DNA from: Nitrospirae bacterium RBG_16_64_22
Lineage (GTDB): Bacteria > Nitrospirota > RBG-16-64-22
Assembly (NCBI GenBank): GCA_001803795.1
Contig: MHEK01000082.1
Location: forward strand, 1-47,389
DNA length: 47,389 nucleotides
Direction of reading: 5' to 3'
Positions within the stretch are counted from its first letter, which is position 1; every line of letters starts with the position of its first letter. The notes under the pieces are model-generated. The model saw only the letters and a program-made list of their open reading frames with translations. It was not told where the DNA came from and made no database searches. Of the stretch, positions 1,422 to 45,383 are shown piece by piece. Both the position numbers and the translations under genes were made by a program.

Positions 1422-4400
1422 TCAGTCTTCGTTCGCGAGGAGGGCGAGGGGGAAGGAGGCGAGGGCGCTGGAGAGAGGCACTCTTCCGCCGTCCGGCGTT
1501 ACGGTTTCGCCCGTAAAGACGTTCCGGTACGTTCCGTTCGAACCTTCCGGGAGACCGATCTCCGTGTCGTTCCAGACCGCCGGCCCGACGGGCGGGTCGG
1601 CCGCCTGGGTGAGCGACGCGAAGAGCCTGGGCGCGATCACGATTGCCTGGGAATTGCCTAGCCGTCGCGCGAAGGCGCAGACGTGCGCGGCCCTTTCGCC
1701 GGTCGCGTCGAGCGGAACGTAGTCGCCATCCCCGAACAGATCCGGCCGGGCCTTGCGAAAACCCAGCGTTTTCCAGATGACGTAGAACTTGATCCCGCCG
1801 TCCTCCATTCGGGCGAGAAGCTTCCGGACCGCCGCCGCCTCCCCTTCAGCCTCGACGCCGGCCTTGAGGCCCTCCAGGGTCCTCGCAAGGAGGTCGAAAT
1901 CCACTGCGCGGCGGTTGTCCGGATCGACAAGGGAGAAGTTCCAGGTCTCGCACCCCTGGTAGGTGTCGGGAACTCCCGGCGATGTGAGCCGGAGAAGCGT
2001 CTGTGAGAGCGAGTTGTACAATCCGATTCGAGAGACGCGCTTCTGGAAAGGGATGAAGTCGGACAGGAAGGCGGATGTGTCGGGGCTTTCGATCAGCGCC
2101 CCGATGAAGCCCTGAACGGCTTCCTCGTATCCGGAATTCGGATTGAGCCAGCTCGTATGGGTCTTGGCCTCGCGCGCGGCTTTGACCATGTACGCTTCGA
2201 TCCGCTCGCGGAAGTCAACGAGGCCGGCGTCGTCGAGATCCGCGAGCGGCCAGGCTCCGACCAAGGTCTGATACAGGAGGTACTCGTCGTTCCTCGACGG
2301 CGCAGGTTCGCCGTCCACGGCCTTTTTCTTCGGCTTGCCGATCCTGCTCCAGCGCCGGAGGTGAGTACGCCACTCGTCCGGAATCTCCGACAGAACGTTG
2401 ACGCGGGAACGGACGTCCTCGCTGCGCTTGCTGTCGTGGGTCGTGGTGTTGATCAGGGCGTGCGGCCAGCGCCTTCCGCGCTCGAAGTTCGCGTGGTGGA
2501 ATGCGGCCGCGGACACGCCGAAGCGGCGCGGATCTCCCCCCACTTCATTGAGCGAGACAAGGCGGTTGTAGATGTAGAACGCGGTGTCCTCCAGCCCCTT
2601 GGCCTTCACCGGGCCGGTGTACTGCTGGAACTTCATCACGAAGGCCGAGACCGCTCGACGGAACAACTCGGGTTTGCCTTCCGCCCCGGTCTTGAGGAGG
2701 ACGTCCCGGAGGAAGTCGAAGATCGTCACGTCAGCGGCCAGACTCCGTTTCTTGGCCACGCTGACGGCCCACTCGACGTGCCGGCGGTCGTCCTGGGACG
2801 GCTCGTCCGCGACGTAGGTGCGGTAGACGGGGAAGCAGGCGACGAGTTCCATGATGGCGCTTCGAAGCGCGGTGCGCGTGAAGTCGCGCGTCCGGCGATC
2901 GGCCTCGGCGATTCTGGAGAGCTGGTTGGCGAGGACTCCGAGCTCGCTCCCCATGGCCACCTTCATGATCAGCTTCTTTGCGCGGTAGAGGATCTCCTCG
3001 AAGTCCGTCTTGCGCCCGATGAACCTGGCGTAGATTCCGTCCATTGCGGCCTCCGCGGCTTGATCGACGAAGAGGCCGTTTGCGCTGTTGGCGAATCCGT
3101 ACCCGGTGGGTCCGTGCACGGGCCAGTGCTCCGGCAGGTACTCGTGAGCCGCGAGGATCTTCTCGACGACCACGTAGAGCGGCCGGGAGGCGTCGGTCCC
3201 TTCAGGCGCGAGCGGAGCGAAGCGCCCCTGGAGGCGCTGGAAGTACAGGAGAGGATTAGAGAGGCCGTCCGGGTGGTCGATCCGGAGACCGTCCACCTTA
3301 CCCTCCGCGATGAGCGCAACGACCTTCCTGTGCGTCTCCTCGAAGACGGTCTCGTCTTCCATTCGGAGCCCGGCGAGGTCGTTGATGTCGAAGAACCTGC
3401 GGTAGTTGATCTCGTCGGCGGCGACGCGCCAGTCGGCGAGCCTGTACGCCTGCGCCTCGAGGAGCCCGTGGAGCAACTCGAACGACGCGGGGACGCCGGG
3501 GGTGCCGTTGAAATCCCCGGCGTTTTCCTCGATGAACCACGCGATGTCAGGAGATCGCTCGACGAGCTGGACCAGTCGCCGCTTGTGGACCTCCTTGTCG
3601 CGGGCTCTCTCGGCGATCTTCCGCGGTTCGGTTTCAAGACGGTTCGGGAGATGATCGAATGCCGTAATGAGGCTCTGGAACTCGAGGAACAGCGGATTGT
3701 CCGCGCCGAGACGCGGCTCGAGACGGGCAATCCGGCGGGCCAGGATGCGCGGGTACTCGCGCGGATCGATCGGGAACAGGTGCTCGTGGTAGAAGATGCT
3801 GAACGCCCCGGTCTCCTTGTCGAAGACGAGCTTGAGAAGGCCTCCTTCAAGCGCAGCCCCGTAGGAGTCGCCCAGAACCGGGACCAGGACTTTGCCCCGA
3901 AGCGTCTCCGTGGCGGGCAGCCAGTCGATGTCGAAGAAGCGCGCGTGAACGGACGCAGGGCCGTTCTCGAGGACGTCCAGCCACCAGGCGTTGTCGGCGC
4001 CCATGATTCCCATGTGGTTGGGAACCAGGTCCAGTATGAGTCCCATCTTCCGCTCGCGGAGGGAGTCCACGAGGCGATCGAGATCCTCGGGCGACCCGAT
4101 CTCCGGGTTGATCGCGTTGTGGTCGATGATGTCGTATCCGTGCCGGCTCCCCGGCCGGGCCTTGAGGAACGGTGAGGCGTAGATGTGGCTGACGCCCAGC
4201 TCGTCCAGGTACGGCACGATCGCTCTTGCCTCCTGGAACGTGAGGCGGCGGCCGAGCTGGAGCCGGTAGGATGCGCGGGGGATGGTGCAGGGTATCGGCA
4301 TCGGCCCGGAGGGCGCCGGCGCCGGTGCCGGTTGCGACCGGGGGGCGTGGCCGCGTTGCTCGCCGAGCGCGGCCGCCAGATGGCGGACGCGCTCGTCTTC

Positions 4401-6533
4401 CATCCAGTCCTCCAGGTCGAGGGGGAGTTTTCGCCGCCAGTTCGGGTACTGGTCCGTTGTTCCGGGAAAGTTCACCTGTTCCGCCTGTCCCAGAACGTCA
4501 TCGGCCTGGACCGCCATGACCATGGACGGACCGCGGGCGACGTATTCGTGCACCGCCCGGGCAAGTTCGGGCGTCATCTCCGGGACAGAGACAGGGTGGA
4601 CCCCCATCCCCGCCGGGAGGAGCCCCTCCCTCTCCAGAGCCATGAGCATGTGCGCCCGGTCCCGCGCCCGCGCCGCGACCTGGGACTCGCGTTTTTCGTC
4701 GGAGGGGAAGAGGCCGAGCCGGGTCCGGACGTCCAGGTCCAGCCCGAGCCAAAACCCGTTCAGGGTGGGAAGATCGTGGGTGCTCACGGCGACGAGGGCC
4801 TGCCTTGTGAAGTCACGCGGCGCGGTGAAGCTGGCGTCCGGGTTCCTCTCGAAATAGAAGAGGCGGTACGAGAGGACTCGCATGGGCGCCAGCGCCTGGC
4901 GGACCTCGTCGGGGACGGTACCGAGGTCTTCCCCGATGACGAGGCAGCGGTTCCGCGTGCTTTCGAGCGCGAGAATCCCGAGAAGGTCCTGCATCGGGTA
5001 ATACACGTAGGCCCCGTCCGCCGGAGTTCCGCCCGGGGGGACCCAGAAGAGGCGCGAGAGCCCCATGACGTGGTCTATCCGCAGCGCGCCGGCGTGCCGC
5101 ATGTTCTCGCGAAGCGTGGCGATGAAGGGGGCGTAGGCGGCCTCGCGCAGCCGGTCCGGAATCGGCGGGGGGAGACCCCAGTCCTGCCCGTTGAGGTTGA
5201 AGTCGTCGGGGGGCGCGCCGATGCCGGCTTGCAAGGCGTACAGGTCCTGGCTCGCCCACGCCTCGGCGCCGCCGCGGTCAACGCTGACCGCGAGGTCCTG
5301 GTAGATTCCGATCCCGAGCCCCATGGAGAGGGCCGTCTCTCCGGCCGCGTGAAGCTGGAGATCGGCCTGCCACTGAAGGTACTCGCGGAACTCCACGCGA
5401 TCGATGTTTTCGGCTTCGAACGCGGCCACGTCGGGCGAGTCCGGAGAGCGGAACGCCTCCGGCCACGCGGGCCAGCCCCAGACGCCGGGGTCTTCCCCGT
5501 GGAAACGCTCCTGGAGCGCCTCGAACAGGGCGAGCCGCCTGAGCGGCGTCCCCCTGTCGGCCTGGAAGGCCCGGAACGACTGGCCGCGCGGCGTTCCGGG
5601 GTCCAGATGGTTTTTCCGGAAATGCCGGTACATGGTTTCGAGCGCCTGTTCCTTGGCCCTGGCGACGGACTTGTAGTCCAGCATCTCGTTCGCGCGGAGC
5701 GCCCTGAGCCGTGCCTGGAACGTGAGAGCGGAGGCGGCTTCCCGCGCGGCCGGGCACTCCGCGAAGTCGGGGATCGCCTCGACGTCCAGGTAGAGAGCGT
5801 TCAGGAAGAGACGGCTCGATGGGGAGTAGGGGCTTGCGTGTTCCGGGTTGTGCGGCAAGAGGGCGTGGAGCGGGTTGACGCCGACGAGGGAACCGCCGAG
5901 ACGAGACGTGAGATCGACGAGGGAAGCGAGATCCGAGAAATCGCCGATTCCCCAGTTTCGCCGCGACCGGACGCCGTAGAGCTGGACCGCCGGGCCCCAG
6001 ACGCGCCCTTCCTCCTCGAGGATCGGGGGGATGTGGCAGGTTTCCGGAGCGACGATGAGCGCCATGGAACCCCTGGCCGGGCCGTCCAGCGAAAAGCGGT
6101 GGTAGCCGGGCGGGAGGGCGAGAGCTAGCGCGAACGCGTATCGGACGCAGGAAAGGCTCCGGACGCGCTTGCCTTCCATGAATTCGAGTTCCGCGGGACG
6201 GAATTCTCCTTCGTGGAGGCGGCCGTCTTCCTGGGTCAGCGTCCATTTGAAGGTGTTTGATGCGAGGACGGCGGGCACGGAGAAAGCGATCCGGACCGGC
6301 GCTTCGCCCTCGCGCACGACCTGTACCGGGGGGAGGACCCGTGTCCACGGCTTGGACGAGCGTTCCTCAAGCGCGGCCTCGATCTCCTTGTCGCTGCCGG
6401 CCGGGACCATCATGGCCGAGAGGAGGGCCAGCCGCGTCTCGACGGAGATTTCGCGGCGATGTCCCCAGATGTCGAAGTAGTCGGGGGCGATCCCGCAGAT
6501 CTCGCATAGCCTGCCGAGAGCCTCGAGATTCAT
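1422..6533 (-). CDS. malQ-treY: Fused 4-alpha-glucanotransferase (MalQ, N-terminal) / malto-oligosyltrehalose synthase (TreY, C-terminal), 1703 aa
   Basis: The N-terminal ~730 aa is GH77-like (CGIAPDYFDIWG..., NPLHALLP, DHVMGLSRLFWVP). A Pro/Ala linker (PAPAPAPSGP) follows. The rest is TreY-like GH13 (YRLQL...GVSHIYASPFLKARPGSRHGYDIIDH, LILDLVPNHMG, GLRIDHPDGL). Confidence 0.9.
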   Translation of the reverse strand: MNLEALGRLCEICGIAPDYFDIWGHRREISVETRLALLSAMMVPAGSDKEIEAALEERSSKPWTRVLPPVQVVREGEAPVRIAFSVPAVLASNTFKWTLTQEDGRLHEGEFRPAELEFMEGKRVRSLSCVRYAFALALALPPGYHRFSLDGPARGSMALIVAPETCHIPPILEEEGRVWGPAVQLYGVRSRRNWGIGDFSDLASLVDLTSRLGGSLVGVNPLHALLPHNPEHASPYSPSSRLFLNALYLDVEAIPDFAECPAAREAASALTFQARLRALRANEMLDYKSVARAKEQALETMYRHFRKNHLDPGTPRGQSFRAFQADRGTPLRRLALFEALQERFHGEDPGVWGWPAWPEAFRSPDSPDVAAFEAENIDRVEFREYLQWQADLQLHAAGETALSMGLGIGIYQDLAVSVDRGGAEAWASQDLYALQAGIGAPPDDFNLNGQDWGLPPPIPDRLREAAYAPFIATLRENMRHAGALRIDHVMGLSRLFWVPPGGTPADGAYVYYPMQDLLGILALESTRNRCLVIGEDLGTVPDEVRQALAPMRVLSYRLFYFERNPDASFTAPRDFTRQALVAVSTHDLPTLNGFWLGLDLDVRTRLGLFPSDEKRESQVAARARDRAHMLMALEREGLLPAGMGVHPVSVPEMTPELARAVHEYVARGPSMVMAVQADDVLGQAEQVNFPGTTDQYPNWRRKLPLDLEDWMEDERVRHLAAALGEQRGHAPRSQPAPAPAPSGPMPIPCTIPRASYRLQLGRRLTFQEARAIVPYLDELGVSHIYASPFLKARPGSRHGYDIIDHNAINPEIGSPEDLDRLVDSLRERKMGLILDLVPNHMGIMGADNAWWLDVLENGPASVHARFFDIDWLPATETLRGKVLVPVLGDSYGAALEGGLLKLVFDKETGAFSIFYHEHLFPIDPREYPRILARRIARLEPRLGADNPLFLEFQSLITAFDHLPNRLETEPRKIAERARDKEVHKRRLVQLVERSPDIAWFIEENAGDFNGTPGVPASFELLHGLLEAQAYRLADWRVAADEINYRRFFDINDLAGLRMEDETVFEETHRKVVALIAEGKVDGLRIDHPDGLSNPLLYFQRLQGRFAPLAPEGTDASRPLYVVVEKILAAHEYLPEHWPVHGPTGYGFANSANGLFVDQAAEAAMDGIYARFIGRKTDFEEILYRAKKLIMKVAMGSELGVLANQLSRIAEADRRTRDFTRTALRSAIMELVACFPVYRTYVADEPSQDDRRHVEWAVSVAKKRSLAADVTIFDFLRDVLLKTGAEGKPELFRRAVSAFVMKFQQYTGPVKAKGLEDTAFYIYNRLVSLNEVGGDPRRFGVSAAAFHHANFERGRRWPHALINTTTHDSKRSEDVRSRVNVLSEIPDEWRTHLRRWSRIGKPKKKAVDGEPAPSRNDEYLLYQTLVGAWPLADLDDAGLVDFRERIEAYMVKAAREAKTHTSWLNPNSGYEEAVQGFIGALIESPDTSAFLSDFIPFQKRVSRIGLYNSLSQTLLRLTSPGVPDTYQGCETWNFSLVDPDNRRAVDFDLLARTLEGLKAGVEAEGEAAAVRKLLARMEDGGIKFYVIWKTLGFRKARPDLFGDGDYVPLDATGERAAHVCAFARRLGNSQAIVIAPRLFASLTQAADPPVGPAVWNDTEIGLPEGSNGTYRNVFTGETVTPDGGRVPLSSALASFPLALLANED

Positions 6534-17165: not shown

Positions 17166-18182
17166 CTACTTCTTCTTGCCTTCGAGCGCCTGGATCCTCT
17201 GTTCGAGCGCGCCCAGCTTCTTGAGCGCCGCGTTCACCTTCACGAAGTTGTAGTAGCTAACGTTCGCGACCGGAAGGTCGGGGTTCGATCCCCAGACGAT
17301 CCAGGAATCGTCGTAGTTCCGGACCTTCGTGTACCCCATGTCCCTCAGGACGGCGTACGTGAGTGTCGAGCGCGTCCCGGTCTGGCAGAGGGCGACGATA
17401 TCCTTCTTCGGGTCCAAGCCCTTGTAAAGGTCCTTGAGGCCCTTTTCGTCCTTCAGGGCCATTCCGTTGCGGTCCTTCACCTGACCCGCGCCGAGCTTCT
17501 TGGCGGCGTCCGGATCCACCCAGGCCTGCTCGTACGGGATGTTGACGCTTCCCGCAATGTGCCCGCCCCGGACCGCCCGGATGTCGTCACCGGAGAACTC
17601 CTTGGTTGTCCGGGCGTCGAGGAGCACGACGTCCTTGTTCTTCAGGTTCTTCTTTACGAAGTCGGTCGTGGCCAGGCGGTCGGCCCTAACCTTGGCAGTG
17701 AACTTCGCGGCCGGGAGCTTCTTGATGTCGGCCGAGAGCGGGTGCTTGGCGGCAACCCAGTCGTCGATCCCGCCCATGTAGACCTTGGCCTTCTCGGCCC
17801 CGAGGTATTCGAGGATCCAGAAGGGGACCGTGGCGCTCGTGTCTCCCTTGATGCTGTAGACGATGATATCGGCTTCCCGCTTGATCCCGGCGTCGCCCAG
17901 GATCTTTTCGAGCTTGGCGACGGGAAGGATCCGGGCGTCGACGTCGCGAAGGACCTTCGCGGCGCCCTTGCCGCCCAGGTTGATCGCGCCGGGGATATGC
18001 CCCTTCTTGTAGCCGTCCTCGGCACGGGCGTCCAGGAGGATCGTGCCCGCCTTGTCCTTGTTCTTGAGGACGTAGTCCGTGTTGACGATGACCGAGCCGG
18101 CATGAGCCGTCCCAACCAGTCCAACGGCCATGAGACCCACGAGCAAAGTGCCGAGCAATCCCTTTCCTTTTCGCTTGCGCAT
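17166..18182 (-). CDS. Secreted tandem-rhodanese thiosulfate/3-MP sulfurtransferase-like protein
   Basis: Signal peptide (LLVGLMAVGLVGTAHA), two rhodanese domains (LLDARAEDGYKKGHIPGAINL; LLDARTTKEFSG), active-site loop CQTGTRS, coiled-coil tail. Confidence 0.85.
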   Translation of the reverse strand: MRKRKGKGLLGTLLVGLMAVGLVGTAHAGSVIVNTDYVLKNKDKAGTILLDARAEDGYKKGHIPGAINLGGKGAAKVLRDVDARILPVAKLEKILGDAGIKREADIIVYSIKGDTSATVPFWILEYLGAEKAKVYMGGIDDWVAAKHPLSADIKKLPAAKFTAKVRADRLATTDFVKKNLKNKDVVLLDARTTKEFSGDDIRAVRGGHIAGSVNIPYEQAWVDPDAAKKLGAGQVKDRNGMALKDEKGLKDLYKGLDPKKDIVALCQTGTRSTLTYAVLRDMGYTKVRNYDDSWIVWGSNPDLPVANVSYYNFVKVNAALKKLGALEQRIQALEGKKK

Positions 18183-24937: not shown

Positions 24938-26371
24938 TTATAGGTCACACGCGGCCATTTCCTTGGCCATCTTTCTATCCGTGTACCAGTTGAAGAACTT
25001 CACGCCGAGAAAAGCCCCGCCGATCATCCCGATCCCGAAGAGCCACCCCGAAACGTCGCCCTGGGAGACGCGGACGAAGAAGGCGCCGATGTTGCACCCG
25101 AGACCGAGCCGGGAGCCGATCCCCATGAGCGCCCCGCCGATCACCGCCCACATCGCGAGCTCGAGGGTGGGCGCCTTCCACTTGAACTCGTTGTGGGAAA
25201 GGGCCATGACGGCGGCGCCGAAAATCAGGGCGATCGACATCCAGTCCGCGGGGTTGATCAGCGGGTTCGGGATGCCGTTGTTGAGGCCGAAGTATATGTT
25301 GTCCATGTTGTCCGCGCCGAGCTTGTTGAACACCCACCCCACCCACTGCGCCTCCTGCGTCGTCACGTACCAGTAGCCGGGGTCGAAGACGGTGCCCTTC
25401 TCGGAGAGGCCGAACGTGATCCCCATCCTCTGCATCAGCTCGCCGAAGTTCTGGACGCCGAACTTGACCTGAAGCCCCTTCATCACGAACATGTGGAGGC
25501 CCGCCGCGATTCCCAGGATCAGTCCGGCGATCGCCGTCCGCTTGGAGGCGGCGATCATGCCCCAGTAACCGGCGAGCTCGACGCCGAGACCGGAGCTGGG
25601 CAGACCTTCCTTCTTCCGCTTGCCCAGGAAGGACTTCCGCACCCAGATGAGATAGACCCCGAGGAGGATCAACGCCGCGGGCAGGATGATGCCCACGAGA
25701 ACGTTCCCCACGTAGGCCGCGAGGAACGGGTTCTTGAACTTCACGATTTCGGCGTACGACGTGGTCGGGAGGTTCCACACGTGGCCGGCCAGGAACTGGT
25801 CCACCCACCCGTCGCCCGCGTTGATCGAGGCGGGGAGCCCCTTGGCGACGGCCGAGTCGTGCCAGGACTGCGGGGCCAGCTTGTTGGCCCAGCCGCCGAT
25901 GTCCGCGAAGATCGCCTGCGTCACGCTGATCGAAAGGATCACGAGGAAGGCCACGCCGTTCCCCTCTCCGGCCTTGTAGAGCGAGCCGGAGGCGCACCCT
26001 CCAGTCAGGACCATCCCGACGCCGAAGATGAGCCCGGCGATGACGGCGTGAACGCCGTAGGGCGCGGAGTGGAACGTGCTCATCCCGACGGCCGTGACGA
26101 AGGCTGAGACGAGGCCGAAGAGGGCCATCGCGATCATGATCCCGACGGCCATCCGGGGGACGCCGACGGCGAAGAGGTCCCGGAACGCCGAGGAGAAGCA
26201 GAACCGACCGTACTGGAGGCTCATGCCGTAGATGAAGCCGAACCACAAGTAAGCCGTGAGGTAGATGTAGTACTCGTTCATCGCGTACGTGACGATGCTG
26301 ACGACGGACAGGAACACCACGATGGCTAGAATCCAGAGCTGATTTTTCCGGTTTGTTTCATCCATTGCCAT
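24938..26371 (-). CDS. YeeE/YedE-family (thio)sulfate/selenium-type transporter, 477 aa long form
   Basis: Polytopic membrane protein with the conserved Cys loops (QYGRFCFSSAF, LTGGCASGSLYKAGEGN, LGLGCNIGAFF). Confidence 0.85.
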   Translation of the reverse strand: MAMDETNRKNQLWILAIVVFLSVVSIVTYAMNEYYIYLTAYLWFGFIYGMSLQYGRFCFSSAFRDLFAVGVPRMAVGIMIAMALFGLVSAFVTAVGMSTFHSAPYGVHAVIAGLIFGVGMVLTGGCASGSLYKAGEGNGVAFLVILSISVTQAIFADIGGWANKLAPQSWHDSAVAKGLPASINAGDGWVDQFLAGHVWNLPTTSYAEIVKFKNPFLAAYVGNVLVGIILPAALILLGVYLIWVRKSFLGKRKKEGLPSSGLGVELAGYWGMIAASKRTAIAGLILGIAAGLHMFVMKGLQVKFGVQNFGELMQRMGITFGLSEKGTVFDPGYWYVTTQEAQWVGWVFNKLGADNMDNIYFGLNNGIPNPLINPADWMSIALIFGAAVMALSHNEFKWKAPTLELAMWAVIGGALMGIGSRLGLGCNIGAFFVRVSQGDVSGWLFGIGMIGGAFLGVKFFNWYTDRKMAKEMAACDL

Positions 26372-31105: not shown

Positions 31106-31273
31106 AAGGGCGGATTGAAAATTGTAAATTGGAAATTGTAAAACTTGAGAACACAAACCCGGCCCAGGGGCCGCGAGGCACTCTGTAAATTGCAATTTTT
31201 GTCCTGTCCTCGCCTTTCACTTTGAAATTTCCAATTTCCAGTTTACAATTTACAATTCTTGCCCTGTCCTCGC
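31106..31273 (+). repeat. AT-rich heptamer-array element B1 (GTAAATT/GGAAATT arrays as inverted arms around a GC core)
   Basis: gggcggattgaaaattgtaaattggaaattgtaaaacttgaga...ctctgtaaattgcaatt...cctgtcctcgccttt...gaaatttccaatttccagtttacaatttacaatt. Shares a long core with B2. Confidence 0.85.
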
Positions 31274-32215: not shown

Positions 32216-32432
32216 TTAGAATTGTAAATTGGAAATTGGAAATTGGAAATTTCAAAGGCGAGGACAGGGCGAGAATTGAGAATTGGAAATTGGAAATTGT
32301 AAATCGTAAAACTTGAGAATCCAAACTCGGCCGAGCGGCGCGAGGCGCTCTGTAAATTGCAATTCTTGCCCTGTCCTCGCCTTTCACTTTGAAATTTCCA
32401 ATTTCCAATTTCCAATTTCCAATCCGCCCTTT
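32216..32432 (+). repeat. AT-rich heptamer-array element B2
   Basis: Arrays of gtaaatt/ggaaatt, an inverted copy of the GC box (tcaaaggcgaggacagggcgagaattg), a core near-identical to B1 (aaacttgagaa..ctctgtaaattgcaatt..ccctgtcctcgcctttcac), then inverted arrays (aatttcc x4). Confidence 0.85.
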
Positions 32433-33603: not shown

Positions 33604-33702
33604 CGGTGAATGGGTGAATCGGTGAGTCGGTGAATCGGGGAAACTGCATAATTCCAGCCCTTGGTCCATTCACCCATTCACCGATTAACCGATTCACCAA
33701 TT
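33604..33702. repeat. Inverted pair of GGTGAAT octamer arrays (A3)
   Basis: cggtgaatgggtgaatcggtgagtcggtgaatcgg ... ccattcacccattcaccgattaaccgattcacc, separated by about 28 nt. Confidence 0.85.
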
Positions 33703-33770
33703 GATCATTCTTCATGCTAGAATATCGCACGTTCAGGGACAAGAGCTAAACCCTTTAGTTGAAGGAGGCC

Positions 33771-34139
33771 ATGGTGTCGGTATCGGGAACCCGGTTCTAC
33801 TACAAATCGACCTGAAACGCCTGCCGCAGAGCGAGGAGTTTCCTTGCCAAGACGGGCGCGAAGTATGAAGAGCGGGATATGGCGAAGACCCCTCCGAACG
33901 AGGACGAAGTCCGGGAACTGGTCGGCAATCGTCCCATCGAGCAGTTCCTGAATCCCCGGTCGGAGATCTTTCGGGAGCGGCGGATGAAGGAGAACCCCCC
34001 CAGCAAGGAGGAGGCGGTCAAGCTGATGGCGGGGGACGCCAACCTGATCCTCCGGCCGATCCTCGTGCGCGGGGCGCGGATCCATATCGGTTTCGAGGGG
34101 CTGCGGGACGAGCGCGCCTATCGCGACCTGATCGCCTGA
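33771..34139 (+). CDS. Spx/ArsC/YffB-family redox protein with in-frame TGA (candidate selenocysteine, U-N-A-C)
   Basis: ATG 33771 (GAAGGAGG upstream) opens MVSVSGTRFYYKST-TGA(33813-33815)-NACRRARSFLAKTGAKYEERD, in frame with the 86-aa track ORF 33879-34139. The TGA aligns with the first Cys of the Spx CxxC (..SCTSCRKARAWL..). Confidence 0.65.
33824..33855 (+). other. Candidate bacterial SECIS hairpin
   Basis: Upper stem gcgagg/ccttgc with loop aguuu, lower stem ccg/cgg. It starts 8 nt after the TGA. Confidence 0.35.
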
Positions 34140-34145
34140 CGACCC

Positions 34146-35216
34146 ATGGCCGCGCGAATCGTCTTCAACGAGGCGGTCGATGACCAGGTCGTGAACCTGA
34201 TCGCGGCTTGCGGCGGCTCGCCCAACGCCGACCTCGTGAAGGACATCATTCACACGGCCCTCCGGGCCGTCATCGACGGAACGGACCGGGGCGACCTCAA
34301 GATCCTCTCCCGCTCCCTCCGCGAGCTCAGGTACGCGTTCAAGGTCTTCGCGCCGTACAAGGACAGGCGGAAGATCTCGATCTTCGGCTCCGCGCGGACG
34401 AGCGAGGACGAGCCGATCTACGCCTACGCCGCCGAGTTCGGCCGGCGGATCGCCGACGCGGGGTTCATGGTCATCACGGGCGCCGGGGAGGGGATCATGG
34501 AGGCGGGTCACCGGGGGGCCGGCCGCGACCGCTCCTTCGGCCTCAACATCCGGCTCCCGTTCGAGCAGGCCCCCAACGAGGTGATCGAGAACGACCCCAA
34601 GCTGATCCTCTTCCACTACTTCTTCACGCGGAAGCTCTTCTTCGTGAAAGAGGCGGACGGCCTCGTCTTTTTCCCCGGCGGGTTCGGCACCAACGACGAG
34701 ACGTACGAGTCGATGACGCTCGTCCAGACGGGGAAGAGCGAGATGGTCCCGCTCGTCATGCTCGATGTTCCCGGCGGGACCTACTGGCGGGAGTGGGAGG
34801 GGTTCGTGAGCGACCACCTCGTCCGCCGCGGGCTGATTGCGCCGGAGGACCTCTCCCTGTTCACCGTGACCGACTCGATCGACGCGGCGATCGGCGAGAT
34901 CGAGCGTTTCTACCGCGTGTATCATTCGTCGCGCTACGTCCACGACGCGCTGGTTCTCCGGCTGACCGCGCACCTGCCCCCGGAGACCGTCGAGGCGCTG
35001 AACGATTCCTTTTCGGACATCCTCGCGGACGGGCGGATCGAGAGCGCCCACGCTTTCCCGGAGGAGGCCAACGAGCCCCAGACGTTCCACCTGCCGAGAC
35101 TGGTCCTCCGTTTCAACCGCAAGAGGTTCGGGAGGCTCCGACAGCTCATCGACGCGGTCAACAGGGCGCCCGTGACGCCCGAAGCACACCACGCGGTCCG
35201 GACGCCGGGGGCATGA
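34146..35216 (+). CDS. LOG-family (TIGR00730-type) nucleotide phosphoribohydrolase with C-terminal extension
   Basis: ISIFGSAR, VITGAGEGIMEAGHRGA, PGGFGTNDETYE (PGGxGTxxE). Confidence 0.8.
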   Translation: MAARIVFNEAVDDQVVNLIAACGGSPNADLVKDIIHTALRAVIDGTDRGDLKILSRSLRELRYAFKVFAPYKDRRKISIFGSARTSEDEPIYAYAAEFGRRIADAGFMVITGAGEGIMEAGHRGAGRDRSFGLNIRLPFEQAPNEVIENDPKLILFHYFFTRKLFFVKEADGLVFFPGGFGTNDETYESMTLVQTGKSEMVPLVMLDVPGGTYWREWEGFVSDHLVRRGLIAPEDLSLFTVTDSIDAAIGEIERFYRVYHSSRYVHDALVLRLTAHLPPETVEALNDSFSDILADGRIESAHAFPEEANEPQTFHLPRLVLRFNRKRFGRLRQLIDAVNRAPVTPEAHHAVRTPGA

Positions 35217-35220
35217 AGGC

Positions 35221-35388
35221 CGGTGAATGGGTGAAACGGTGAATGGGCGAATGGGTGAATGGACAAGCACTCAGCCGTCAGCGATCAGCGGTCAGCAAGA
35301 ATGGAATACGTCTCTTGAATTGTGCTGAAAGCCGAAAGCTGAATGCTGACTGCTGACAGCTATCGGTGAGCGCGTGAATCGGCGAAGC
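35221..35388. repeat. Composite array element: GGTGAAT units, GGTCAGC units, spacer, inverted GCTGAC units, degenerate GGTGAAT units
   Basis: cggtgaatgggtgaaacggtgaatgggcgaatgggtgaat...tcagccgtcagcgatcagcggtcagc...gctgaaagccgaaagctgaatgctgactgctgacagc...cggtgagcgcgtgaatcggcgaag. Confidence 0.8.
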
Positions 35389-35396
35389 TGGAGCGT

Positions 35397-36959
35397 ATGA
35401 CGACACACCGCGCTGGCGGACAGAACTTCCTCTCTCCTGAGCCGGAGGTCCGCCTGACGAAAGCCTTCCCCAAGGCGTTCCGGAACGCCGTCGCCGCCGC
35501 CCAGACCTGCTACTCGTCGAAGGGGATCGTCGACGACGACGGCGTGGCGCCCAGGTACGCCGACCTCGCGCGCGAGATCTACCGGGCGGGGCACCACACC
35601 GTTTTTCAGCACGCCCATTTCCAGTTCGCGCTGTCGGGAATCTCCCGCCACTTCATCTGGAGCTTCCTCCACGCCCATCCCTTCTACAACTCGGAGCAGG
35701 TGAGCCAACGGTATGTTGAGGTCAAGGCGGGGTCCGCGGTCGTGCCGCCGCTCGCCGGTTCGGCGCTCCAGCGGTACATGGAGACGGTTTCGTACCAGAC
35801 GGAGGCCTATCGGAAGCTCACGGACCTGCTGGTTCCCGTCGTGGACGCGGAGTTCGCGAAGCGGTTTCCGCGCCGGCGGAAGGGATTCGAAAAGGACGTC
35901 CGGAAGAAGGCCATGGAACTCGCGCGGTACGTCCTGCCGGTGGCGACGACGGCCTGCCTCTACCACACTGTCTCCGGCATCACGCTCCTCCGGTACCACC
36001 GGCTTTGCCGCTCGTTCGATGCCCCGCTGGAACAGCGGATCGTCGTGGAGAAGATGGCGGCGGCGGTGCTCGCCGCCGAGCCCGACTATATCCACGTCCT
36101 CCAGGAGCCGCTGGCCCTGGAGGAGACGCCCGAGTACCGGTTCTTTGCCTCCCGGTCCGAATGGGCGGCTCCGGAGACGCGGCGCGCCTTCCTCCGGGAG
36201 TTCGACGAGGCGCTCGACGGATGGACGTCGAAGCTCGTCGATATCAAGCCGGGAAACGAGGCGGTCCTGGCCCGGGCCGTCCGCGAGGTCCTCGGCGTGC
36301 CCCGCGCCGCCCTCTCGAACGAAGAAGCGATCCGGCTGGCCCTCGATCCCGCCGTCAACCGGCTCCATGGAGAGACGCTCAACCTGTCGAGCGTCTCGAA
36401 GCTCTCCCGGACGCTCGTCCATCCCGGCTACACGTTCCGGAAGAAGATCTCCCTCACGGCGGACTCGCAGGACCAGCGCCACCGGATGACGCCGGCCTCC
36501 AGGCCGGTCCTGACGGCCCACCTGACGGCCGAACCCGACGCGGTGACGCCCGATCTGATCCGGACGGACGACCGGACCTCCCGCCTCTATGACGAGACGA
36601 TGGCGGTGACGTGGGAATCGATCGACGCGCTCCGGCGCGAGGGGATCCCCGACGAGTTCGTCCTCTACCTTCTCCCCAACGCGGCGGCTGTCCGGTACAC
36701 GGAGTCGGCCGACCTCATGGGTCTCCGGCACAAGCACGCCATGCGCCTGTGCTACAACGCCCAGGAGGAGATCTGGCGGGCCACGCTGGACGAGGCCCTT
36801 CAGGTCCGCGAGGCGAACCCGCTCATCGGGAAGTACCTCCTTCCACCCTGCGCGCTTCGAGAGATGGCGGGCGCCCATCCGATCTGCCCCGAAGGCGCGC
36901 GCTACTGCGGCGTCAAGGTCTGGAGGCTCGGCCTGCACGAGTACGAAAGGAAGATCTGA
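35397..36959 (+). CDS. ThyX-like (flavin-dependent thymidylate synthase family) protein, tandem-domain form
   Basis: ThyX-type motif remnants: SRHFIWSF...NSEQVSQRY in the first half and DSQDQRHRMT in the second half. At 520 aa it is about twice the canonical ThyX length. Confidence 0.5.
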   Translation: MTTHRAGGQNFLSPEPEVRLTKAFPKAFRNAVAAAQTCYSSKGIVDDDGVAPRYADLAREIYRAGHHTVFQHAHFQFALSGISRHFIWSFLHAHPFYNSEQVSQRYVEVKAGSAVVPPLAGSALQRYMETVSYQTEAYRKLTDLLVPVVDAEFAKRFPRRRKGFEKDVRKKAMELARYVLPVATTACLYHTVSGITLLRYHRLCRSFDAPLEQRIVVEKMAAAVLAAEPDYIHVLQEPLALEETPEYRFFASRSEWAAPETRRAFLREFDEALDGWTSKLVDIKPGNEAVLARAVREVLGVPRAALSNEEAIRLALDPAVNRLHGETLNLSSVSKLSRTLVHPGYTFRKKISLTADSQDQRHRMTPASRPVLTAHLTAEPDAVTPDLIRTDDRTSRLYDETMAVTWESIDALRREGIPDEFVLYLLPNAAAVRYTESADLMGLRHKHAMRLCYNAQEEIWRATLDEALQVREANPLIGKYLLPPCALREMAGAHPICPEGARYCGVKVWRLGLHEYERKI

Positions 36960-40076: not shown

Positions 40077-40123
40077 GGTTCACCCCTCCGAAGCGCGAAA
40101 CGTCCGGAACAAATGAGAAATGA

Positions 40124-40262
40124 AGATTGAAAATTGTAAATTGGAAATTGGAAATCGCAAATCGAGAATCCGGAGCGCAGGTATTTGCGCGGCGCCATGC
40201 CGCTTCGCCTGCTCTTTGAATTTACAATTTGCAATTTACAACTTACAATTTCCAATTCTCTT
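40124..40262 (+). repeat. AT-rich heptamer-array element B3
   Basis: gattgaaaattgtaaattggaaattggaaatcgcaaatcgagaatc - GC core - gaatttacaatttgcaatttacaacttacaatttccaattctc. The left end matches the B1 left end. Confidence 0.8.
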
Positions 40263-41851: not shown

Positions 41852-41902
41852 CCGGTGAATCGGTGAATGGGTGAGTCGGTGAGTCGGTGAATCGGTGAAT
41901 CG
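41852..41902 (+). repeat. GGTGAAT octamer array A5
   Basis: ccggtgaatcggtgaatgggtgagtcggtgagtcggtgaatcggtgaatcg. Confidence 0.85.
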
Positions 41903-41931: not shown

Positions 41932-42603
41932 ATGTTCCGGCGGCTGAACAGCGAAATACAGGTCTTCCTGGAGCGGGACCCGGCGGCGCGGAGCGTTCTG
42001 GAGGTCGTCACCTGCTATCCCGGCCTCCATGCGATCCTTTTCCACCGCTTCGCCCACTGGCTGTGGGGGCGGGGGCTGAGGCTCCTTGCGCGGATGGTCT
42101 CCCAGACGTCCCGGTTCCTGACGGGGATCGAGATCCATCCCGGCGCCCGCGTCGGCGAGCGGTTCTTCATCGACCACGGATCGGGCGTGGTGATCGGTGA
42201 GACGGCCGAGATCGGCGACGACGTCCTGATCTACCAGGGCGTCACGCTGGGCGGGACGGGGAAGGAGAGGGGCGGGAAGCGCCATCCGACCATCGGCGAC
42301 CGGGTGACCGTCGGCGTCGGCTCGGTCGTCCTGGGACCGATTACGATCGGCCACGACGTGCGCATCGGCGCGGGCTCCGTGGTCGTCAAGCCGGTCCCCG
42401 ACAACTGCACGGTTGTCGGTGTTCCGGGCCGGATCGCCCGGATGGAGGGGAGGAAGCTCACGGACGACGAGCTGCTCGCCCACGGGAACCTTCCCGATCC
42501 CGAGGTCCAGTTGATCCGAGAGATGCAGGATCGCGTCTCGGAACTGGCCGAACGGCTCAGGGTGCTGGAAAAGCGGATGCGGGATGAGTCGGTGAATGGG
42601 TGA
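41932..42603 (+). CDS. cysE: Serine O-acetyltransferase
   Basis: [54 protein letters not shown], and hexapeptide repeats. The tail DESVNG-stop is encoded by array A6. Confidence 0.85.
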
Positions 42604-42694
42604 ATCGGTGAATCGGTGAATCGGAAAGGCACTCCTCCCCTTTGTAAGGCCCCGAAATCACGTTCGGGGCAGAAGAGGATGGGTGGGGTAGAGA
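42588..42694 (+). repeat. Array A6 plus conserved ~70-nt tail
   Basis: gtcggtgaatgggtgaatcggtgaatcggtgaatcgg, then aaaggcactcctcccctttgtaaggccccgaaatcacgttcggggcagaagaggatgggtggggtagag. Confidence 0.85.
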
Positions 42695-42702
42695 ATGGCG
42701 TG

Positions 42703-43536
42703 ATGCGAAACGAAACCGTCGGGAAGCTGAAGACAGCCATGTGTATCCTCCGGGAGACGGGAGGATGCGTCGTCGCTTTCTCGGGCGGCGTCGATTCGGC
42801 CGTTGTCACGGCCGTCGCGCGCGAGGTCCTGGGGGACCGCGTTCTCGCCGTGACGGGGGATTCGGCATCCCTCCCGGCGCGGGAGCGGGGGGACGCGGTC
42901 CGCGTGGCCGCCTTCACGGGTGTCCGCCACCGCTTCATCCGAACGAAGGAACTCTCCGACGGTCGGTACGCCGCGAACCCCCCCGATCGGTGCTTCTACT
43001 GCAAGGACGAGTTGTATTCCCGGCTGTTCGAGATCGCGGGAGACGAGGGACTGCCGGCCGTCGTGGACGGGCAGAACGCGGACGACGCTTCGGACTACCG
43101 GCCGGGCTCCGAGGCCGCGCGCAGGCATGCCGTCCGGTCTCCGCTCAAGGAGGCGGGTCTTTCGAAGGCGGAAGTCCGGGAGATTGCGCGGGACCGCGGG
43201 ATCCCGATCTGGGACAAGCCGGCCTCGCCCTGCCTGGCTTCGCGGTTCCCCTACGGAACGACGATCACGGCTGACGCGCTGGCGCGGGCGGACACGGCGG
43301 AAATATTCGTACGGTCGCTGGGGTTTCGGGATGTGCGGGTGCGGGTCCGGGGCGGCTCCGCGACGGTAGAGGCGGAGCCTGGGAGCGTCGCCCGCCTGTT
43401 GGATCCTGCCTTGGCGGCGCGCGTGGTCGAGGCGCTTCAGGGCATGGGTTTCGCGGACGTCCGGATCGATCCGGAAGGGTTCCGGAGCGGGAAGATGAAT
43501 GAAGGAATGATCAACGGTGAATCGGTGAATGGGTGA
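42703..43536 (+). CDS. PP-loop ATPase of the LarE/TIGR00268 type (ATP-dependent sulfur transferase-like)
   Basis: VVAFSGGVDSAVV (SGGxDS PP-loop), CFYCKDELY, VVDGQNADD, PCLASRFPYG. The start is uncertain (42679 or 42703). The earlier track start lies inside the repeat. Confidence 0.7.
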   Translation: MRNETVGKLKTAMCILRETGGCVVAFSGGVDSAVVTAVAREVLGDRVLAVTGDSASLPARERGDAVRVAAFTGVRHRFIRTKELSDGRYAANPPDRCFYCKDELYSRLFEIAGDEGLPAVVDGQNADDASDYRPGSEAARRHAVRSPLKEAGLSKAEVREIARDRGIPIWDKPASPCLASRFPYGTTITADALARADTAEIFVRSLGFRDVRVRVRGGSATVEAEPGSVARLLDPALAARVVEALQGMGFADVRIDPEGFRSGKMNEGMINGESVNG

Positions 43537-43618
43537 ATGGGTGAATCGGAAAGACACTCCTCCCCTTTGTAAGGCCCCGAAAGCATGCTCGGGGCAGGGA
43601 AGGTTGGGAGGGGTAGAA
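43515..43618 (+). repeat. Array A7 plus conserved ~70-nt tail
   Basis: cggtgaatcggtgaatgggtgaatgggtgaatcgg, then aaagacactcctcccctttgtaaggccccgaaagcatgctcggggcagggaaggttgggaggggtaga. An inverted partner of the tail start (ccttacaaaggagggg) lies at 43658-43673. Confidence 0.85.
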
Positions 43619-44849: not shown

Positions 44850-45383
44850 ATGAGGCGTTTCAATATTGCCATTCTTGGGCTTGTCCTGTTTTCGCTCTTC
44901 TCCATGGATGCGGGCACGGCAGCGGCGGCGCCGGTCGCCGTCGGATCGAAGGCCCCCGACTTCAAGACGACGGACCACGACGGCCGGTCGGTGACCCTCT
45001 CCGGGCTCCGGCACGGCCGGAAGCTCGTCCTCGTCTTCTACCGGGGGGAGTTCTGAGGGGCCTGCCGCTCGCAGTTGGCGGGCCTGAGCGAAAAGATCCT
45101 GGAGTTCCGCGGCACGGGGGCAGGCGTCGCCGCCGTGAGCGCGGATCAGACTCATGTCTCGAAAGGTCTCCGAGACCGGCTGAGCCTGTCGTTCCCGCTT
45201 CTCTCCGATCCCAAGAGGATCGTCATCCGGAAGTACGGCGTGCTGAACAAGGATCAAGCGGCGAAACCGGCCGTCTTCATCCTGGACAGCAAGGGAATCG
45301 TCCGGTGGGAATACATCGGGAAGAGCCCGTCCGACCGGCCCGAGCCCGAGACCCTGCTGACGGAGTTGGCGAAGATCAATTAG
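44850..45383 (+). CDS. Secreted Prx-like/redoxin-family thiol:disulfide oxidoreductase with in-frame TGA (candidate selenocysteine, U-G-A-C)
   Basis: Track ORFs 44850-45056 and 45075-45383 share one frame (225 nt apart). Joined, they read ...KLVLVFYRGEF-TGA(45054-45056)-GACRSQLAGLSEKILEF..., the FYRG.W-CxxC-..QL pattern of AhpC/TSA-redoxin proteins. N-terminal signal peptide. Confidence 0.65.
45059..45084 (+). other. Candidate bacterial SECIS hairpin
   Basis: 8-bp stem ggccugcc/ggcgggcc (one G-U pair) with a 10-nt loop gcucgcaguu. It starts 2 nt after the TGA. Confidence 0.35.

Follow-up and report, generated by a model that had tools for sequence, protein, structure and literature searches.

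The stretch of DNA analysed here, 47,389 nucleotides of contig MHEK01000082.1 from Nitrospirae bacterium RBG_16_64_22 and called the window throughout, raises at positions 33771-34139 the question of how a TGA triplet at 33813-33815 is decoded: is it a stop, or a selenocysteine (Sec, U) codon within a small gene of the ArsC/Spx superfamily that annotation has deprived of its active site? We conclude that this UGA very probably encodes Sec and that the locus would be a mis-called selenoprotein gene. Observed directly are the gene structure, the correspondence between the TGA and the cysteine (Cys) codons of homologues, the conservation of the TGA and, at the distance of a bacterial selenocysteine insertion sequence (SECIS), a hairpin that covaries and is confined to the TGA forms.

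The reading frame across the TGA

Direct translation of the + strand from ATG 33771 gives MVSVSGTRFYYKST-TGA-NACRRARSFLAKTGAKYEERD-MAKTPP..., with NACRRARSFLAKTGAKYEERDMAKT as the residues right after the in-frame TGA, and runs into an 86-residue open reading frame (ORF) at 33879-34139, the sole piece that the mechanical ORF list holds here, to end at a genuine TGA stop (34137-34139). A first-pass annotation of this DNA had proposed this frame, a sequence element just upstream of ATG 33771 and a TGA falling exactly at the first Cys of a CxxC motif; the translation, the sequence GAAGGAGG read at 33761-33768 and alignments with Cys homologues agree with it on all of this. The elements of the gene are as follows, L001, L002 and L004 being loci of close relatives within the Nitrospirota.

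33761-33768, + strand: Shine-Dalgarno-like sequence GAAGGAGG, read directly, with its AGGAGG core kept in L001 and L002
33771-34139, + strand: full coding sequence of the candidate selenoprotein of ArsC/Spx fold, 122 codons including Sec, from the translation, the Pfam PF03960 match, the alignment with Cys homologues and the same frame in L001, L002 and L004
33813-33815, + strand: putative Sec UGA codon, residue 15 and first position of U-N-A-C, aligned with the first Cys of CxxC and kept in 27 distinct Sec-form sequences
33822-33824, + strand: TGC for the resolving Cys, which is residue 18 and the last of UxxC; all aligned Cys and Sec forms share this Cys, apart from the noisy L001 with its AGC

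The GGAGG is spaced 2 nucleotides (nt) from ATG 33771 and 5 nt from GTG 33774; the GTG may be the real start instead, which leaves the conclusion unaffected.

Among the matches of an indexed protein search were three Cys homologues of full length that start MRTFYYKSTCSTCRKAR (P0002-P0004) and two close relatives called as 86-residue fragments (P0001, P0005), the DNA of which is that of L001 and L002. In alignments with the Cys homologues, at 48-58% identity, the TGA falls on the first Cys of FYYKSTCSTCRKAR. If the gene really began at the methionine of the fragment, its homologues should begin there too; the full-length Cys homologues (P0002-P0004, L003 and L005-L007) begin 3-8 residues ahead of the motif F-Y-Y-K-S-T-C-x-x-C, so this is not the case. 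Reference genomes, when scanned, gave additional Cys forms from an uncultured bacterium and from an Actinomycetes metagenome-assembled genome (L005, L006), and a metagenome scan added 80 more loci. Over the metagenomic and earlier loci together, the codon at the motif is TGA in 25 and Cys in 60, with TGA also present in L001 and L008, which the search pattern had missed; the comparative set used below consists of 27 distinct Sec-form sequences and 56 Cys forms.

The conservation of the TGA bears on the simplest alternative, which is that it is a true stop: a pseudogene lesion, a sequencing error of TGC or TGT, or the stop ahead of a real gene that is the 86-residue ORF from ATG 33879. Gene callers give only the 86-residue product, here as well as in P0001 and P0005, as this alternative would have it. 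Against it, four assemblies independent of one another (the window, L001, L002 and L004) retain the TGA, the ArsC-like proteins of the last three being ~92-98% identical to that of the window, and so do 23 more distant metagenomic loci. The locus L004, from a metagenome-assembled genome of a groundwater member of the Nitrospirae (JACPZO010000169), encodes a protein 98% identical to that of the window, with ~92% DNA identity over the shared region. The changes on both sides of the TGA are mostly synonymous third-position ones (e.g., CGC to CGG, AAG to AAA, GAA to GAG, GAT to GAC), and the window and its relatives diverge far more upstream of the ribosome-binding site than across the coding frame. 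The 14 codons before the TGA and the 21 between it and Met37 thus evolve as coding sequence and match the full-length homologues, which speaks against an error or a pseudogene mutation; a product of 86 residues would moreover be devoid of strand 1 and of the active-site helix, and it is 33771, not 33879, that has a strong ribosome-binding site ahead of it.

One of these assemblies must be read with care. The locus L001, an ENA contig, is rich in frameshifts and fragmented gene calls over its whole length, and at 6323-6376 an AGC (Ser) codon replaces the TGC of the second Cys; this is probably an assembly error rather than a UxxS variant, and it was given no weight.

At a wider scale, an exhaustive profile search queried with the Cys homologues and the 86-residue fragment yielded 2133 representatives at E <=1e-3, and many of the best 150, dozens in all, are 92-97 residues long and start just past the motif, the signature expected of truncated calls of Sec forms. 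In a neighbour-joining tree, at least five Sec clades are interleaved with Cys clades, which implies repeated exchange between the two residues, and the sister group of the clade that holds the window consists of the Cys forms L003 and L005-L007.

The hairpin after the TGA and the capacity to insert selenocysteine

The first-pass annotation had proposed a hairpin at 33824-33855, with a GU-containing loop and at a distance compatible with bacterial SECIS elements. A hairpin does follow the TGA; its extent has to be revised, since those positions lie inside a larger predicted stem-loop.

33831-33847, + strand: SECIS-like upper hairpin of the predicted fold, with 5' arm 33831-33837 (GCGAGGA), loop 33838-33840 (GUU) and 3' arm 33841-33847 (UCCUUGC)
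33818-33858, + strand: whole predicted stem-loop of the minimum free energy (MFE) structure, with lower stem 33818-33823/33853-33858

The MFE of the 60 nt from the TGA (33813-33872) is -19.2 kcal/mol, and a lower stem is also found in the individual folds of several other Sec forms. Published constraints on bacterial SECIS elements are a loop of 3-9 nt, a stem of 4-16 base pairs (bp), a G in the first two loop positions (N1-G-U-N-N2), a spacing of 16-37 nt and an MFE <=-7.5 kcal/mol (PMC13188914). The hairpin of the window lies within all of them, with a loop of 3-5 nt (A-G-U-U-U), a stem of 6-7 bp, a spacing of 21-22 nt and a core MFE of -9.0 kcal/mol, so that the earlier proposal of a GU-loop hairpin at SECIS distance holds, and, as described next, the hairpin sets the TGA forms apart from the Cys forms.

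The comparison of Sec and Cys forms is what gives the hairpin its significance, not the folding energy of a single sequence. All 27 Sec forms have a stem of 5-8 bp whose 5' arm begins at nt 19, counted from the U of UGA, and lies in Ala-Arg/Lys codons, and G26 and U27 of the loop are invariant among them. The 3' arm, in Phe/Trp/Leu-Leu codons, shifts by 1 nt either way between subgroups, giving loops of 3-6 nt over the family. A stack of at least 5 bp together with G26U27 is present in 27/27 Sec forms and in 0/56 Cys forms when the register is fitted identically for both, and only 9% of synonymous recodings of the Sec forms reach a stack of this length. The mean local MFE over nt 15-40 is -9.0 kcal/mol for the Sec forms vs -3.5 kcal/mol for the Cys forms (Mann-Whitney p = 1.8e-12, a value that overstates independence because the sequences are related). 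When the stems alone are aligned, 92.9% of the cells are paired, vs 39-60% after sliding by 1-2 positions and 29% at +3; four of the six stem pairs change on both sides, as in the variants GCGAGG/CCUUGC, GCCAGG/CCUGGC, GCAAGA/UCUUGC and GCGAAG/CUUCGC, and none of 500 shuffles matches the observed covariation score.

The loop leaves its trace in the protein. Of the 27 Sec forms, 24 have AGU as their loop codon and the other 3 have GGU; the codon at this place encodes Ala in 46/56 Cys forms, so the SECIS-like element appears to dictate the protein sequence, with Ser (AGU) or Gly (GGU) at this position in all Sec forms. In the window the G-U of the loop is supplied by a Ser AGT codon, which is rare in this high-GC DNA: it makes up 5/514 Ser codons (1%) in 23 window genes.

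Several results weigh against decoding of this UGA as Sec. Taken alone, the hairpin of the window is unremarkable, as a true stop would predict, with z = -1.86 against dinucleotide shuffles; about 10% of synonymous recodings drawn with the codon usage of the window fold equally well, and p is 0.045 with uniform codons. The covariation count depends on an alignment with a fitted register, for which the same fitting applied to the Cys forms serves as control and is the fairer test. RNAalifold, run on the ungapped codon-register alignment of the 27 Sec forms, found no consensus helix, because the 3' arm shifts by 1 nt either way between subgroups. Rfam gave no match, either over the whole window at gathering thresholds or over 33750-33900 at E up to 10. 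Finally, Pfam scans of ~37 ORFs found no SelA, SelB or SelD in the 47-kb window, and ARAGORN found no tRNA in the window and no tRNA-Sec in 21 related loci; this too is what one would see if the TGA were a stop. A pair count in fixed register likewise did not separate Sec from Cys forms, and the best-register stack count, applied alike to Sec, Cys and recoded sequences, and the stem-only alignment were used in place of fixed-register tests. Given that a hairpin with a G-U loop is confined to the TGA forms, we consider a true stop at 33813 highly improbable.

The organism's capacity to insert Sec is indirectly supported by the sequence data. A scan of the window for in-frame TGAs with coding-like flanks brought out a second case, at 45054.

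44850-45383, + strand: second candidate selenoprotein, AhpC/TSA (peroxiredoxin-like), from its translation, with the TGA at 45054-45056 and the motif VFYRGEF-U-GAC

Its product has a hydrophobic N-terminus that resembles a signal peptide when judged by eye, and gene callers split the frame into pieces of 65 and 102 residues. Where this TGA stands, homologues have the first Cys of FYRG(H/E)WCxxC, and L087, L088 and L089 retain the TGA, the proteins of L087 and L089 being 81-85% identical to that of the window; about 70 nt around it are invariant in four assemblies, including a GC-rich hairpin after the TGA. Two independent UxxC genes within 47 kb speak strongly for Sec decoding here, and further indirect support comes from the selB-selC described for one lineage of groundwater Nitrospirae (PMC8124441). 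A global reassignment of TGA was rejected: TGA ends 20/32 window genes, the ArsC-like gene included, and is their commonest ordinary stop.

Two other genes of the window, both on the - strand, were looked at in this context. The product of 24938-26371 is a Sulf_transp/YedE-like membrane protein that scores 148 bits on NF033796 ('selenium metabolism membrane protein YedE/FdhT'), far below the cutoff of 350, and was not counted as a selenium-related gene; that of 17166-18182 is a tandem-rhodanese sulfurtransferase, far below the cutoffs of selenium-specific models. Both products may handle sulfur or selenium.

The proposed course of decoding is as follows. Just past UGA 33813 the mRNA would fold into a bacterial SECIS with upper stem 33831-33837/33841-33847 and apical loop A-GUU-U, and SelB, loaded with Sec-tRNA(Sec), would attach to this hairpin when the ribosome arrives at the UGA, as in established bacterial Sec insertion. 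The predicted product is a thioredoxin-fold ArsC/Spx protein of 122 residues with the active site U-N-A-C, in which Sec would replace the first Cys of CxxC, the nucleophilic one.

Fold, likely role and surroundings

What this protein might do was addressed through profiles and structures, with Cys substituted for the in-frame TGA in the profile searches. The full protein matches Pfam ArsC (PF03960) over residues 10-109 with 47.8 bits, vs a cutoff of 24; for the 86-residue fragment alone the match covers residues 18-73 and starts only at profile position 17, which indicates that the fragment is without the active-site part. The best NCBIfam model is TIGR01617 (arsC_related, 'Spx/MgsR family'), with 64.8 bits for the protein of the window; its relatives fall on both sides of the cutoff of 75.05 (P0002 84.7, L010 85.6, L085 74.4 and L020 69.7). 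On the model NF041106 ('ArsC family (seleno)protein'), with a curated cutoff of 85, the protein of the window scores 33.5 bits and five of six other members of the family score 31-39 bits, the model not being listed for the sixth. Indeed, no matched NCBIfam model, selenoprotein-aware ones included, reaches its cutoff for the protein of the window. Because of these scores of 31-39 bits, the protein and its relatives are to be placed, as far as profiles tell, in a branch of the superfamily outside NF041106.

Sequence matches in the PDB are ArsC-like CxxC proteins (2m46, 3fz4, 3gkx) and Spx (3l78, 1z3e), all of which align their CxxC on U-N-A-C. The AlphaFold model of P0002, a Cys homologue of 58% identity, has a predicted local distance difference test score of 89.5, places the motif Cys at the N-terminus of helix 1, and superposes on Spx with template modelling scores (TM) of 0.82-0.84 and on 3fz4, YffB, 3gkx and 2m46 with TM of 0.75-0.79. 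The protein of the window thus belongs to the ArsC/Spx superfamily by its profile match and by the fold of its homologue's model. The earlier label 'Spx/ArsC-family' is right at this level, and it does not by itself establish the identity of either an Spx regulator or an arsenate reductase.

Spx is a CxxC redox-switch regulator that binds the C-terminal domain of the RNA polymerase alpha subunit (alpha-CTD), and the selenoprotein could be a regulator of the same kind, switched by a selenenyl-sulfide, rather than an oxidoreductase enzyme. The best structural matches of the P0002 model are precisely Spx-alpha-CTD complexes (1z3e, 3gfk, 7f75), TIGR01617 with its 'Spx/MgsR family' name is the top model, with relatives to ~85 bits, and the UxxC stands at the same place as C10-xx-C13 of Spx. 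Set against this, the Spx-specific models remain far under their cutoffs (NF002459 45.1 vs 123, NF009210 28.4 vs 159 and NF009885 27.9 vs 152 bits), and the CxxC proteins 2m46 and 3fz4 are slightly closer by sequence. The proteins of the family have 109-122 residues and are without the C-terminal tail of Spx (131-132 residues). In the sequence alignment, the Gly of the E-N-G-T motif (S. mutans Spx 3l78), which we take to be G52 of the alpha-CTD interface of B. subtilis Spx, aligns with Pro55, at a variable position in the family. Residues at which Sec and Cys replace each other repeatedly are typically catalytic redox residues (PMC1794560), and the neighbour-joining tree points to such exchange here. 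A regulator of the Spx kind is quite improbable in our judgement.

The protein might instead be a true ArsC arsenate reductase coupled to glutaredoxin, for which one could cite its membership of Pfam ArsC and the existence in marine metagenomes of ArsC-type selenoproteins, among them an 'Arsenate reductase 1' with UxxS (PMC2398784). The motif here is UxxC, unlike that of the catalogued protein; the glutaredoxin-coupled arsenate reductase model TIGR00014 gives 27 bits vs a cutoff of 106; structures of E. coli R773 ArsC are only distant fold matches (TM ~0.72, E ~1e-4) and are absent from the sequence matches; and Pfam scans of the window ORFs found no ars genes nearby. We regard such a reductase as hardly credible.

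A small selenol/thiol oxidoreductase is most likely what the mature protein would be. In this oxidoreductase U15 would act as the nucleophile of the UxxC centre, forming a selenenyl-sulfide with C18 that cycles with the reduced form, as the fold and the Sec/Cys exchange suggest.

The genes that follow were considered for further indications of function.

34146-35216, + strand: LOG/TIGR00730-like gene (Pfam Lysine_decarbox 80.7 bits, LDcluster4; TIGR00730 93.3 bits)
35397-36959, + strand: double-domain ThyX-like gene of 520 residues (Pfam Thy1 158.6 bits in two stretches; TIGR02170 93.5 bits vs cutoff 87.9)
L003 10360-11898, L005 ~3640-5190 and L007 3929-5476: ThyX-like homologues

The LOG-like gene starts 6 nt past the stop of the ArsC-like gene, an arrangement also seen in L002 and L004, and the two are probably co-transcribed. 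In L003, L005 and L007 the immediate neighbour of the ArsC-like gene, 12-125 nt downstream, is a ThyX-like homologue of 512-516 residues, which in the window and L004 lies one gene further downstream. A functional link with the co-located LOG-like and ThyX-like genes is possible. The linkage to ThyX is restricted to the nearest subclade, more distant members having other neighbours, and the neighbourhood was rejected as a general functional clue since gene order is not conserved across the family. It seems improbable that the branch is a selenium-based transcriptional redox switch in the style of Spx, or a dedicated electron donor for the double-domain ThyX-like enzyme, unusually long at 512-520 residues; for selenoproteins, either role would be physiologically new. 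Elsewhere in the family, the KFLQKPSCTTCRKAKAFLEK-type Cys forms (L016 and ~35 other loci) have 27-29 nt downstream a conserved gene of ~185 residues that looks macro (ADP-ribose-binding)-like by eye.

Upstream, no complete -35/-10 site came out of a scan with the promoter consensus. A block TTCATGCTAGAATATCGC is common to the window and L001 with diverging flanks (the alignment of L002 covered only the part from GAATATCGC on), and short repeats occur in this region and elsewhere.

33715-33723, + strand: TGCTAGAAT, which may be an extended -10 element of a promoter
33604-33642, 33666-33702, 445-457, 1372-1398, 35222-35262, 41853-41902, 42585-42624 and 43515-43549: octamer arrays

The octamer CGGTGAAT forms tandem arrays of 4-6 copies at many gene boundaries of the window; GGTGAATSGGTGA, with one mismatch allowed, is observed 25 times where 0.16 occurrences would be expected. 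Immediately ahead of the ArsC-like gene stand two of these arrays, inverted relative to each other and ~24 nt apart, and similar repeats occur upstream in L001 and L002. Intergenic tandem arrays of heptamers (AATTGGA, AATTTCC, AATTTAC and ATTGTAA, 3-5 copies each) at 31114-31257, 32220-32423 and 40121-40257 make up another class of short repeats, rich in AT although the GC content of the window is otherwise 60-68%.

Relation to known selenoproteins and redox proteins

Catalogues began to list ArsC-like selenoproteins in 2006 to 2008. An 'Arsenate reductase-like protein' with UxxC, assigned to COG1393/NF041106 (ArsC_rel_Se_1), stands in catalogues of the prokaryotic selenoproteome (PMC9312934, PMC13188914), 'ArsC-like' selenoproteins were described in Desulfotalea and Desulfuromonas (PMC1794560), and an 'Arsenate reductase 2' with UxxC, of the type cd03032 ArsC_Spx, was found in the Global Ocean Sampling marine metagenome (PMC2398784). 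The gene of the window adds a member to these already catalogued UxxC proteins and mainly corrects an annotation.

With the NF041106 family the protein of the window would share the ArsC/Spx fold, Sec as first residue of UxxC, the existence of Cys homologues and a SECIS in the coding sequence right after the UGA; the difference is that it and its relatives, Sec and Cys forms alike, reach only 31-39 bits on a model with a cutoff of 85. The Global Ocean Sampling 'Arsenate reductase 2' and the forms from Desulfotalea and Desulfuromonas, compared by description, resemble it in belonging to the Spx-like ArsC subfamily and in having UxxC and many Cys homologues, whereas the members described here were obtained from groundwater Nitrospirota and from metagenomes of soil or sediment, not from marine plankton or Deltaproteobacteria.

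Among the Cys proteins, Spx of Bacillus subtilis and Streptococcus is alike in its fold (TM of 0.82-0.84), in the place of the CxxC at the N-terminus of helix 1 and in the motif L-(I/L)-R-R-P-I, and unlike in its identity of only ~28%, in scores of Spx-specific models below cutoff, in an interface Gly that is not conserved, in its longer C-terminus and in its phylum. The closest proteins by sequence (E = 9e-12 to 6e-9) are SACOL0876 (2m46), a protein of S. mutans (3fz4), one of B. fragilis (3gkx) and YffB (1rw1), of ~114-120 residues, which share the start F-Y-x-x-x-x-C-x-x-C-(R/K)-(R/K)-A; all are Cys forms and uncharacterised. As for the RNA, the hairpin agrees with the bacterial SECIS consensus (the bSECISearch model, of the E. 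coli fdhF type) in being a stem-loop within the ORF after the UGA, with an early G-U in the apical loop, a spacing of 21-22 nt and an upper stem of 6-7 bp. It differs in that the 5' arm of the family is fixed in the Ala-Arg/Lys codons while the 3' arm shifts by 1 nt, with a loop of 3-6 nt.

For each of the four assemblies of the lineage (the window, L001, L002 and L004), what the mechanical ORF list or, where available, the gene call offers is just the 86-residue fragment without the active site. Automatic pipelines probably keep missing this gene because no NCBIfam model reaches its cutoff, the relatives scanned being also below that of NF041106. Together, these comparisons leave the current understanding of ArsC-like selenoproteins standing; the value of the locus would lie in the corrected annotation and in a fuller distribution, in which groundwater Nitrospirota and many soil and sediment lineages join the users of these proteins.

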